A stretch of 64,000 bases of DNA from Candidatus Poribacteria bacterium. GTDB lineage: Bacteria; Poribacteria; WGA-4E; PCPOR2b. Positions 43,715 through 43,999 of this stretch are shown here, one piece after another. The DNA is taken from assembly GCA_965208325.1 (NCBI GenBank), contig OZ242326.1, forward strand, positions 1,120,001 to 1,184,000, given 5' to 3'. How positions within the stretch are numbered: the stretch's first letter is position 1; each line of letters opens with the position of its first letter. A program made the translations under genes and the position numbers. The notes beneath the pieces were generated by a model, which saw only the letters and a program-made list of their open reading frames with translations, was not told the DNA's origin and did no database searches.

Positions 43715-43744
43715 CCACTAACACCAAACATGGAGGTGACTCAA

Positions 43745-43999
43745 ATGGGACTCGACTGGAAACCGCGTCATCGGGATTTAGTCATTGGCGGCATTCCTTG
43801 GCTTGCCCGTATCACGGATAAAGCGCGCGCCAAATTGAACGGGACTATCGGCGACTACATTTACCCGTGACCAATGGATCAATCAGTATTCCTGGAGGAA
43901 TACAAGCTCACAGGCGACGAGTTTATTGAAATTGTAAAAAATAATCCGTCAGACGATGACATGATTGCTGCGATTCGGTCGCTGGCGAAAGAACAATAA
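43745..43999 (+). CDS. Small DUF5069-like protein with in-frame UGA (codon 42, 43868-43870), candidate selenoprotein
   Basis: GGAGGTGA RBS; MGLDWKPRHRDLVIGGIPWLARITDKARAKLNGTIGDYIYP-UGA-PMDQSVFLEEYKLTGDEFIEIVKNNPSDDDMIAAIRSLAKEQ*; SECIS-like hairpin follows. Missed by ORF track. Confidence 0.75.
43871..43910 (+). promoter_or_regulatory. Putative bacterial SECIS element
   Basis: Perfect 7-bp stem GTATTCC/GGAATAC (43886-43903) with loop TGGA starting 22 nt after the UGA. Confidence 0.65.

Follow-up and report, generated by a model that had tools for sequence, protein, structure and literature searches.

A candidate selenoprotein of the DUF5069 family encoded across an in-frame UGA codon in Candidatus Poribacteria

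Background

Among described bacterial selenoprotein genes, the closest in build to the one reported here are those of the Escherichia coli fdhF type, in which an in-frame UGA stands where homologs have Cys, an intragenic SECIS hairpin lies downstream of it, and selA, selB, selC and selD are present. In selenoproteins of the thioredoxin fold the catalytic residue is located at the start of a helix. The thioredoxin-fold proteins with UxxC or CxxU motifs form the majority class of selenoproteins (PMC13188914, section 7), and Table 1 of the same review, an inventory of prokaryotic selenoproteins as of May 2026, holds 119 families and subfamilies. The model given there for the bacterial SECIS element (bSECIS) has a loop of 3-9 nt with a G at its first or second position, a stem of 4-16 bp, a distance of 16-37 nt from the UGA and a minimum free energy (MFE) of -7.5 kcal/mol or lower (PMC13188914, section 5 and Fig. 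2 legend). A number of single-Sec families in the inventory, including DUF166, DUF1573, DUF523 and the hypothetical proteins GOS_B, DG and DF, have been predicted computationally from Sec/Cys pairs together with a downstream hairpin, without biochemistry.

The gene described here, a short form of DUF5069, shares with the fdhF type its UGA at the Cys of homologs, its downstream intragenic hairpin and the presence of selA, selB, selC and selD. Its hairpin resembles the bSECIS prototype in the 4-nt loop, in the G of the loop and in the spacing (22 nt at this locus, 19 nt in the majority of relatives, 21 nt in the Chloroflexota forms), but is small by the standard of the model, with 5 bp in most relatives, and by itself falls short of -7.5 kcal/mol. 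Like the thioredoxin-fold class, the protein is predicted to carry its Sec at a helix start; unlike the UxxC/CxxU proteins, it has no second Cys, and the local motif is YPUPMD. The evidence is of the same kind as that for DUF166, DUF1573, DUF523 and similar families, which differ in being other families and in having models in NCBIfam.

An NCBIfam search of the protein returned 0 families at E <= 1, and hence no curated selenoprotein model. DUF5069 is absent from Table 1 of PMC13188914, and the string PF16798 occurs nowhere in that review. The two '5069' strings found in its text are fragments of accession numbers. The GOS supplements contain no DKARA, YPUP or YIYPU string, GOS_A being a different sequence, and no mention of 'DUF5069' or 'PF16798' was found in the literature searched. 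An earlier, sequence-only reading of this DNA had taken the family not to be known as a described selenoprotein family, and no such description turned up in these sources. Judged from sequence comparison, DUF5069 is almost certainly a further family to be counted among the bacterial selenoproteins.

Results and Discussion

Gene layout at the locus

The window, meaning the whole stretch of 64,000 nucleotides of Candidatus Poribacteria DNA that was analysed, contains the locus on its forward strand, and the features of the locus given below lie on that strand. The upstream neighbour (40514-43714) encodes a UPF0182 family protein (Pfam PF03699, E = 1e-244), and the downstream neighbour (44051-45115) is pheA, with the Pfam domains CM_2, PDT and ACT (chorismate mutase, prephenate dehydratase and ACT). 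Between the two genes, the ribosome-binding site GGAGGTGA (43733-43740) could be read off the sequence, with its GGAGG core 7 nt 5' of an ATG at 43745. This ATG is followed by a frame of 41 sense codons, counting the start, a TGA at 43868-43870 as codon 42 within the motif YIYP-U-PMD, 42 further in-frame codons and a TAA at 43997-43999. When TGA is read as U, the frame is open as a coding sequence of 84 codons plus TAA (43745-43999). Position 42 holds the one Cys or Sec of the 84-residue protein, and no other Cys is present in the sequence.

The hairpin GTATTCC-TGGA-GGAATAC (43886-43903) starts 15 nt past the UGA. Its 7-bp stem is formed by 43886-43892 and 43897-43903 and encloses the loop UGGA (43893-43896), and the distance from the A of the UGA to the first loop base is 22 nt. 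The ribosome-binding site, ATG, UGA, reading frame, hairpin and 22-nt spacing had all been proposed in the sequence-only reading, and each was verified at the same position. A promoter and terminator scan of 43500-44300 found none, and no Rfam family matched within 43600-44100 at E <= 1.

It is very probable, on the comparative evidence set out below, that positions 43745-43999 form one gene, encoding an 84-residue DUF5069 selenoprotein in which the UGA at codon 42 is read as Sec. Decoding of this codon would be carried out by Sec-tRNA(Sec) delivered by SelB, and SelB would be recruited by the small intragenic hairpin, GUAUUCC-UGGA-GGAAUAC in the mRNA. Without recoding, the ribosome would release a 41-residue fragment, which is also what public annotation gives.

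Family assignment and homology across the UGA

The read-through peptide matched the Pfam family DUF5069 (PF16798) with 56.1 bits and E = 5.7e-15, the cut-off being 27 bits. The match is a single stretch, residues 7-82, that runs across the UGA; it covers only positions 4-78 of the 133 in the profile, which is less than a full-length domain, and orthologs of the window protein are likewise short, at 81-89 residues. The family as a whole numbers 286 cluster representatives at E <= 0.001. In the alignment, the conserved basic residues R8, R22, K26 and R28 flank the motif in the sequence.

A protein of known structure also aligns across the UGA. PDB entry 3OMD, an uncharacterized protein from Leptospirillum rubarum, matched the window protein with a sequence E of 2.8e-14, and its segment YTYNCPLDQ places a Cys opposite the UGA. 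It differs from the window protein in having Cys for Sec and in its length of 145 residues, with about 60 extra C-terminal residues. The DUF5069 motif that had been given in the sequence-only reading agrees with the consensus of the alignment, and the placing of the UGA at the conserved Cys of the family was borne out, the YxYP-C-P column being Cys in 3OMD and TGC or TGT in all 50 non-TGA loci described below. An end of homology at the UGA had been named in advance as grounds for rejecting the gene; homology persists beyond it in both the Pfam match and the alignment, with a downstream dN/dS of 0.12.

Conservation and Sec/Cys alternation

An ortholog with exactly one internal TGA was found in 61 of 61 Ca. 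Poribacteria genomes of the same order, representing 4 families and 15 genera, and in all 60 distinct orthologous genes an ATG lies 41 codons 5' of the TGA. Median dN/dS was 0.074 upstream of the UGA and 0.123 downstream, which indicates purifying selection on both halves of the gene. In 80% of the orthologous genes codon 44 encodes Gln, which leaves most orthologs without a separate start for the downstream half; an ATG at codon 44 is limited to the genus of the window.

At the DNA level the column reads TGA in all 30 of the Poribacteria loci L051-L080. The 50 loci L081-L130 all read TGC or TGT, with no Trp codon among them, and comprise one deep Poribacteria lineage together with Chloroflexota, Bacillota, Limnochordia, Clostridia and Brocadiaceae. 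Three sponge-metagenome studies, independent of one another, supplied contigs that showed no difference from the window at 43868-43870 or in the hairpin, reading TGA and never TGC, TGT or TGG, the check over the codon that the earlier reading had called for. Elsewhere in the gene the same contigs carried 13 variant sites, two of them downstream of the UGA; 12 of the 13 are at third codon positions, and the thirteenth is part of a CGT-to-AGA (Arg) change.

The hairpin as a probable SECIS element

The hairpin is present in the minimum-free-energy fold, and in most relatives it takes the form GUUCC-UGGA-GGAAC, with 5 bp and a spacing of 19 nt. Codon usage within it is strongly constrained. Over 60 genes, the core codons TTC CTG GAG GAA have synonymous entropies of 0, 0.12, 0 and 0.12 bits, the four lowest of 39 conserved degenerate codon columns (the next is 0.21 bits), while Leu codons at other places in these genes reach 1.8-2.15 bits and Phe60 is TTT in 37 and TTC in 23. 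Only two variants of the core were seen, CTG to TTG and GAA to GAG, and both pair as G.U.

Five of the seven stem pairs are nearly invariant, and covariation is confined to the three outer pairs, two of which fail to pair in 20 and 25, respectively, of the 45 sequences compared. Pair 24-37 is GC in 43, AU in 1 and GU in 1; pair 23-38 is UA in 18 and AU in 2; and pair 22-39 is AU in 22 and GC in 3. The covariation score was 0.061, as against 0.045 in shuffles (0 of 500 reached the score), a control that overstates the case since the sequences are related. Three pairs of the structure were changed on both sides, compared with at most one in slid controls. The measure of 'further pair types' did not rise above shuffles (384/500). 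ATG was associated with CAT in 15 of 17 cases, versus 9 of 33 with AAG or AGG, an association that tracks family lines. At L081, the single Cys-form Poribacteria locus, GAG AAG stands in place of GAG GAA and the stem is broken.

Measured against the bSECIS model, the window hairpin fits in its loop of 4 nt, its stem of 7 bp, a G at loop position 2 followed by another G, and its spacing of 22 nt. The MFE of the UGA plus 45 nt was -9.2 kcal/mol and that of the hairpin alone -6.6 kcal/mol; the 5-bp consensus hairpin of most relatives gave -4.2 to -5.7 kcal/mol, and RNAalifold -5.6. The 66-nt fold is not unusually stable (z = -1.4, with 19 of 200 shuffles as stable), and the significance of the hairpin therefore comes from the comparative data and not from its energy. 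The generic bSECIS rules were also considered as a means of telling Sec forms from Cys forms and were rejected for this use: 50 of 50 Sec forms comply with them, as do 36 of 47 Cys forms, and an MFE of -7.5 kcal/mol or lower is found in 46 of 47 Cys forms.

The proposal of a SECIS-like hairpin in the sequence-only reading thus stands, with agreement with the bSECIS model joined by signs of selection at the RNA level in the core codons, the G.U variants and the three outer pairs. On these comparisons the hairpin is under RNA-level constraint, with counts that overstate independence, the sequences being kin. We infer that it binds SelB and that Sec is actually inserted at codon 42.

Selenocysteine machinery and genetic code

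The presence of selA, selB, selC and selD had been set as a check on the proposed gene, and all four were present in the genome, each scoring over its curated cut-off. The genes for SelA (589 bits), SelB (373 bits) and tRNA-Sec (selC, 77.5 bits) lie in one genome cluster, and selD (377 bits) has an in-frame TGA of its own and is Sec-containing. Hairpins built like the one described here occur in two further Sec genes of the genome, GGAUCC-GGG-GGAUCU in selD and CAGCUC-GUU-GAGCUG in a Prx-like gene. TGA terminates 657 of 1916 long open frames in the genome, showing that it is a normal stop there. The machinery was rejected as a discriminator between the Sec and Cys forms, as tRNA-Sec was found in 5 of 5 Cys-form genomes tested.

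Probable Sec forms in Chloroflexota

In a sample of 401 Chloroflexota genomes, an ortholog was found in 45, three of which have TGA at the same column. These Sec forms carry the motif DYIYP-U-PIDLRVLGEL, and tRNA-Sec and selB are present in all 3 genomes. Their hairpin, GGGUGCUC-GGU-GAGC(UA)ACCC, is of different sequence, with its loop 21 nt past the UGA. In an unconstrained tree the Chloroflexota Sec forms were nested among Cys forms (SH-aLRT 99), which forces at least 2 changes, and in the AU test a single Sec clade was not rejected (p = 0.21). An independent origin of the Chloroflexota Sec forms is thus suggested by the sequences. For the study of SECIS evolution, the Poribacteria genes offer a natural series, 60 distinct genes with one near-invariant 12-nt core and a minimal SECIS of 5-7 bp, and this series is complemented by another phylum, whose hairpin differs but lies at about the same distance.

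Structure, gene neighbourhood and possible function

The AlphaFold model of the window protein is mostly helical, with four helices and a short hairpin, and Sec42 is placed just before the helix of residues 43-50. In structural comparison 3OMD was the only strong match, with a TM of 0.78 and an rmsd of 1.8 A over 74 columns in Foldseek and a Z of 11.7 over 81 residues in VIA-align. After it, the best fold match had a Z of 3.9 (Rap2a), and Foldseek rows 2-14 all had E > 5. Rows with a TetR-like fold (Z about 3) were discounted as common helical arrangements, no thioredoxin-fold chain was among the structural matches listed, and an ESM Atlas search with P0020, a naturally occurring Cys homolog, returned nothing of use. 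For the window protein, then, neither a second Cys nor a thioredoxin-type motif nor an informative fold match was found.

Of 90 Sec-form loci, 80 have UPF0182 as their upstream neighbour in the same orientation, and the downstream neighbour is pheA in 48 and a WD40 protein in 41. In one Poribacteria family a Grx-Pyr_redox_2 fusion lies directly upstream on the same strand. Neighbours of the Cys forms in other phyla are unrelated to these, and include APH, DUF2344, Cys_Met_Meta_PP with CoA_binding, EPSP synthase and ABC transporters; comparison of the Sec-form and Cys-form neighbourhoods found no gene partner conserved across phyla. The sequence-only reading had proposed a redox role as probable; none of the fold, neighbour or family matches assigned a function to the protein.

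Sec rarely occurs outside catalytic positions, most of which have a redox role. This confinement, taken with the Sec/Cys pair, marks one residue of DUF5069 as the likely active site. Sec42 may accordingly be pictured, with about even confidence and in keeping with its modelled position, as the catalytic nucleophile of a one-Sec (one-Cys) protein of redox or sulfur/selenium-transfer function that would be recycled by an external thiol system. A more tentative proposal, which we regard as possible but rather unlikely, is that DUF5069 constitutes an unrecognised catalytic class outside the thioredoxins, with one Sec or Cys at a helix start and recycling of the glutaredoxin or thioredoxin-reductase type, and apparently predisposed to a switch from Cys to Sec. 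The predisposition is proposed because the [FV]-L-[EG]-E-... peptide past the Cys has self-complementary codons able to form a SECIS at the right distance, and, if true, it would account for the unrelated hairpins of the Poribacteria and Chloroflexota Sec forms.

Sec could also be inserted and serve a role other than redox catalysis, either binding a metal across a dimer interface or carrying persulfide or perselenide. TusA-type proteins use the Cys of a CPxP motif as a persulfide carrier, and the window protein has one Cys or Sec per chain, followed by Pro and placed at a helix start, with the basic residues R8, R22, K26 and R28 around the motif; 3OMD was moreover deposited with two chains. 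The Pfam search of the read-through peptide, on the other hand, found neither TusA nor any other family at E <= 1, and the likelihood of such a role appears well short of even. By a regex count, the Cys is absent in 22 of 150 wider family representatives, which says little for or against a non-redox role. Whichever role Sec42 may have, DUF5069 is widespread and has a solved structure in 3OMD, which makes it a direct starting point for biochemistry on a family of unknown function.

Alternative decoding and public annotation

The UGA might instead be read through without Sec, by a near-cognate or suppressor tRNA inserting Trp, Cys or another residue, the hairpin merely slowing termination. Conservation of the downstream codons demonstrates continued translation only and not the identity of residue 42, and among 55 hits in protein collections the column is printed as W in 11, with C in 39 and the protein cut right after YIYP in 4. 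The W, however, appears because the gene callers concerned use a code in which TGA is Trp, and the DNA-checked loci without TGA have Cys, the Sec analogue, in 50 of 50. TGA is an ordinary stop genome-wide, the Sec system of the genome is complete, similar hairpins are present in at least two of its other Sec genes, and in both loop content and spacing the hairpin at this locus agrees with the SelB-type model. Read-through of this kind is on these grounds very improbable.

Least probable of all, and hardly credible, is a true stop at the UGA, with either a 41-residue product or a gene in decay, the 42 downstream codons being untranslated or forming a separate small gene: public gene calls do give 41- and 46-residue fragments, and a 41-codon ORF does run from an ATG at 43874, but the TGA and frame are maintained in all 61 genomes of the four families under downstream selection, the Pfam and 3OMD homology spans the stop, the codon-44 ATG is a feature of a single genus, and a pseudogene would not be expected to hold one stop at the conserved Cys of the family in two phyla.

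The sequence-only reading had predicted that gene callers would truncate the gene, as the 41- and 46-residue fragments in public collections show, and a gene found in every examined Poribacteria genome of the order is annotated only as a fragment. Some database proteins of 66-76% identity (P0012, for example) have C at the column, seen as protein only. A metagenome scan with P0012 as query gave 13 loci with TGA, 7 with Cys and a different peptide and 2 lacking the motif, and no Cys form carrying the same FLEE peptide among them. The nearest DNA found for P0012 itself carries TGA.

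Reading frame and conservation across the UGA

The DUF5069 gene lies in the 336 bp, between 43714 and 44051, that separate the UPF0182 gene (40514 to 43714) from pheA (44051 to 45115). The sequence GGAGGTGA (43733 to 43740) is located ahead of an ATG at 43745, which is followed by 41 sense codons, an in-frame TGA (43868 to 43870), and 42 further in-frame codons leading to a TAA (43997 to 43999). The gap, ATG, TGA, TAA and downstream hairpin had been described in a sequence-only reading, and each was found in the sequence. With the TGA translated as U, the product has 84 residues and the motif YIYP-U-PMD, in which Sec42 is the sole Cys or Sec of the protein.

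The same reading had likened the peptide to DUF5069, and a PF16798 (DUF5069) match to the read-through peptide (56.1 bits, cut-off 27) confirmed this, running unbroken through the UGA from residue 7 to residue 82. A clustered-protein search covering 5.8 billion proteins returned 55 short relatives, of which 39 have C at the UGA column, 11 have W, four end exactly after YIYP and one begins just after it; among the W forms is the sequence of the window itself, from a gene call with TGA as Trp. In whole-genome searches every one of 61 genomes from the window's order, spanning 4 families and 15 genera, yielded a single ortholog with 64-99% identity and exactly one internal TGA. In all 60 distinct coding sequences obtained from the fetched orthologs an ATG lies 41 codons 5' of the TGA, and two further loci containing N have the TGA and hairpin as in the other orthologs. 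Median dN/dS was 0.074 upstream of the UGA and 0.123 downstream of it. Residue 44 is Met solely in the window's genus; since it is Gln in 80% of the 60 genes, most orthologs lack a separate start codon for the downstream half. We conclude that 43745 to 43999 is one gene, not two.

The TGA on which the sequence-only reading depended is unchanged in contigs from three separate sponge-metagenome studies (runs X6, X7 and X10), which list no difference at 43868 to 43870 or at the hairpin, 43886 to 43903; a fourth run had no coverage of either interval. By codon arithmetic, 12 of the 13 sites that vary within the gene fall at third codon positions and the other at position one of an Arg codon (CGT to AGA); the two downstream of the UGA are 43933 and 43987.

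Selenocysteine machinery and genetic code

The genome to which the window belongs (G000) was found to encode selA, selB, tRNA-Sec and selD, the machinery that decoding of the UGA as Sec had been expected to need. The genes for selA (589 bits), selB (373 bits) and tRNA-Sec (77.5 bits) are side by side in one cluster at G000:C1:2041509-2044983 (- strand), and selD (377 bits; G000:C1:4481278-4482201, - strand) is itself a selenoprotein gene with an in-frame TGA in the motif KCAG-U-ASK. A Prx-like gene at about G000:C1:4409563 (+ strand) also contains an in-frame TGA (GQW-U-PSC). Both have hairpins built like that of the DUF5069 gene and at similar distances: CAGCUC-GUU-GAGCUG in the Prx-like gene is part of the minimum free energy (MFE) fold, and GGAUCC-GGG-GGAUCU in selD can be drawn from 12 nt after the UGA by reading the sequence, RNAfold preferring another fold. 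TGA terminates 657 of the 1916 open frames that are 300 codons or longer, which contradicts its global reassignment. Within the window, 47818 to 47901 (- strand) scores 42.5 bits against the tRNA-Sec model, short of the cut-off of 47, and probably encodes a normal tRNA whose variable arm is long.

Sec/Cys alternation

That the UGA stands at a conserved Cys, as the sequence-only reading had proposed, was borne out at the DNA level. TGA was found in 30/30 Poribacteria loci (L051-L080), and TGC or TGT in 50/50 loci (L081-L130) from one Poribacteria isolate (KatS3mg115), Chloroflexota, Bacillota, Limnochordia, Clostridia and Brocadiaceae; further metagenome loci gave 13 TGA and 7 Cys codons. In the family's solved structure, PDB 3OMD, YTYNCPLDQ aligned to YIYP(U)PMDQ. 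Of 150 representatives of the wider family screened with a regular expression, 99 have Cys at the column, 22 have no Cys, 12 are truncated there and one has W; the expression missed the motif in the other 16.

Three database proteins (P0005, P0008 and P0012) have C at the Sec column, 67-76% identity and the FLEE peptide; because the closest DNA recovered for P0012 carries TGA there, they may be either true Cys forms or Sec forms written with C. The wider family also includes repeat proteins in which YGxDSGLD replaces the Cys motif, and genomes of other Poribacteria (e.g. G006:C1:4807985-4808593 and G030:C7:15002-15637) contain paralogs in which DUF5069 is repeated two or three times in tandem within frames of 285-490 residues.

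The hairpin and its selection as RNA

The inverted repeat GTATTCC-TGGA-GGAATAC noted in the sequence-only reading is present at 43886 to 43903 and forms in the MFE fold, although the whole 66-nt fold is not unusually stable (z = -1.4). PMC13188914 gives the bacterial SECIS model as a loop of 3-9 nt with G in its first two positions, usually then G or U, a stem of 4-16 bp, a UGA-to-loop distance of 16-37 nt and an MFE of -7.5 kcal/mol or lower. By comparison, the loop of the window element is UGGA, its stem 7 bp and its spacing 22 nt; the UGA plus 45 nt folds at -9.2 kcal/mol and the isolated hairpin at -6.6. Elements that fit these rules occur in 50/50 Sec forms, yet in 36/47 Cys forms too, so the fit was given little weight. 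The peptide just after Cys or Sec (FLEE in Poribacteria, VLGELG in Chloroflexota; L021-L080 against L082-L130) has inherently self-complementary codons, and weak hairpins therefore occur at the SECIS position in many Cys forms, which may ease Cys-to-Sec switches.

The evidential weight for the hairpin rests instead on synonymous constraint and covariation. Across the 60 genes, synonymous entropies at the codons TTC CTG GAG GAA (residues 49-52; 43889 to 43900) are 0, 0.12, 0 and 0.12 bits, the lowest four among 39 degenerate codon columns with the amino acid at least 95% conserved; the next lowest is 0.21 bits. Other Leu codons of the same genes reach 1.8-2.15 bits and other Glu codons about 1 bit, and Phe60 is TTT in 37 and TTC in 23. 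The sole two departures in the core, CTG to TTG (L147) and GAA to GAG (L149), each turn a Watson-Crick pair into G.U. The RNAalifold consensus is a 5-bp stem, GUUCC-UGGA-GGAAC, lengthened to 7 bp differently in several lineages: by GUA/UAC, GUG/UAC or GUG/CAC in the window's genus and AAG/CUU in another, while Met47 genes have AUG/CAU in 15/17 and those with AAG or AGG have CAU in just 9/33. In an alignment of 45 sequences, whose kinship makes the counts non-independent, 3/7 pairs showed changes on both sides; the covariation score exceeded all 500 shuffles, and slid controls gave at most one two-sided pair. Of the two outermost pairs, one is open in 20 of the 45 sequences and the other in 25, and the measure of further pair types was not above the shuffles. 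In the only Cys-form Poribacteria locus the stem is disrupted, as the sequence there is GAG AAG and not GAG GAA. These comparisons indicate selection on the hairpin at the RNA level.

Sec forms in Chloroflexota

A sample of 401 Chloroflexota genomes contained an ortholog (E <= 1e-8) in 45, three of which had one TGA, all at the same column (DYIYP-U-PIDLRVLGEL). Their hairpin, GGGUGCUC-GGU-GAGC(UA)ACCC, differs in sequence from that of Poribacteria, and its GGU loop starts 21 nt downstream of the UGA. In each of the three genomes tRNA-Sec and selB score over the cut-offs, and tRNA-Sec was also found in 5/5 Cys-form genomes. A 42-residue truncated NCBI protein, "hypothetical protein [Chloroflexota bacterium]", stops at the same YIYP. 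In a quick maximum-likelihood tree the three Sec forms are nested among Chloroflexota Cys forms (SH-aLRT 99), and the starred branches force at least two state changes. The tree suggests an independent origin, graded no higher because a single Sec clade is not rejected by the AU test (p = 0.21).

Novelty

Taken together, UGA codon 42 is very probably decoded as Sec, and the gene is a real, conserved Sec-encoding gene whose family is missing from current inventories. DUF5069 (PF16798) is absent from the whole of Table 1 of PMC13188914, with its 119 families and subfamilies; no NCBIfam release 20.0 model matched the read-through peptide at E <= 1; and no paper was found in the searchable literature under "DUF5069" or "PF16798". 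In its passages on novel families the deep-Sep paper names nine, none of them DUF5069. The new families of the GOS paper differ from DUF5069, and a matching peptide string is absent from four of its supplements. The gene adds to a well-known kind of system, bacterial Sec genes.

Predicted structure, neighbours and possible role

An AlphaFold2 model from a 56-row alignment was confident (pLDDT 84.8, pTM 0.72); it starts with a short hairpin at the N terminus, and its helices span 20-31, 43-50, 57-66 and 70-83; residue 42 directly precedes the second helix. Against this model 3OMD gave a Foldseek TM of 0.78 and a VIA-align Z of 11.7 (next best 3.9). Judged from the predicted fold, it is the only convincing structural relative, and its annotated function is unknown. 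Nearly invariant residues include P7, R8, G15, W19, L20, A21, R22, D25, K26, A27, R28, A29, G36, Y38, I39, Y40, P41, D45, L50 and F60. As Sec generally replaces a catalytic Cys (PMC13188914), and given the position of the residue, Sec42 could be the one-Sec nucleophile of a redox catalyst or of a sulfur/selenium-transfer protein that depends on an external thiol system for recycling. On this basis, the chances of a catalytic redox or transfer role appear evenly balanced.

Among 90 Sec-form loci, a count that includes duplicates between two fetches, the same-strand upstream neighbour is UPF0182 in 80 and a Glutaredoxin-Pyr_redox_2 fusion in 9, and the same-strand downstream neighbour is pheA in 48 and a WD40 protein in 41; L061, the only other locus, lacks both kinds of neighbour. 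Cys forms of other phyla have unrelated neighbours. The fusion replaces UPF0182 directly upstream, on the same strand, in one Poribacteria family (L039, L045, L153, L155 and L156; duplicates L055, L071, L079 and L146), and is a possible redox partner. Elsewhere in the window, 37223 to 40144 (+ strand) encodes a 973-residue protein of unusual architecture, in which Peptidase_MA_2 and PD40 beta-propeller repeats occur together with an Omp85 domain at the C terminus.
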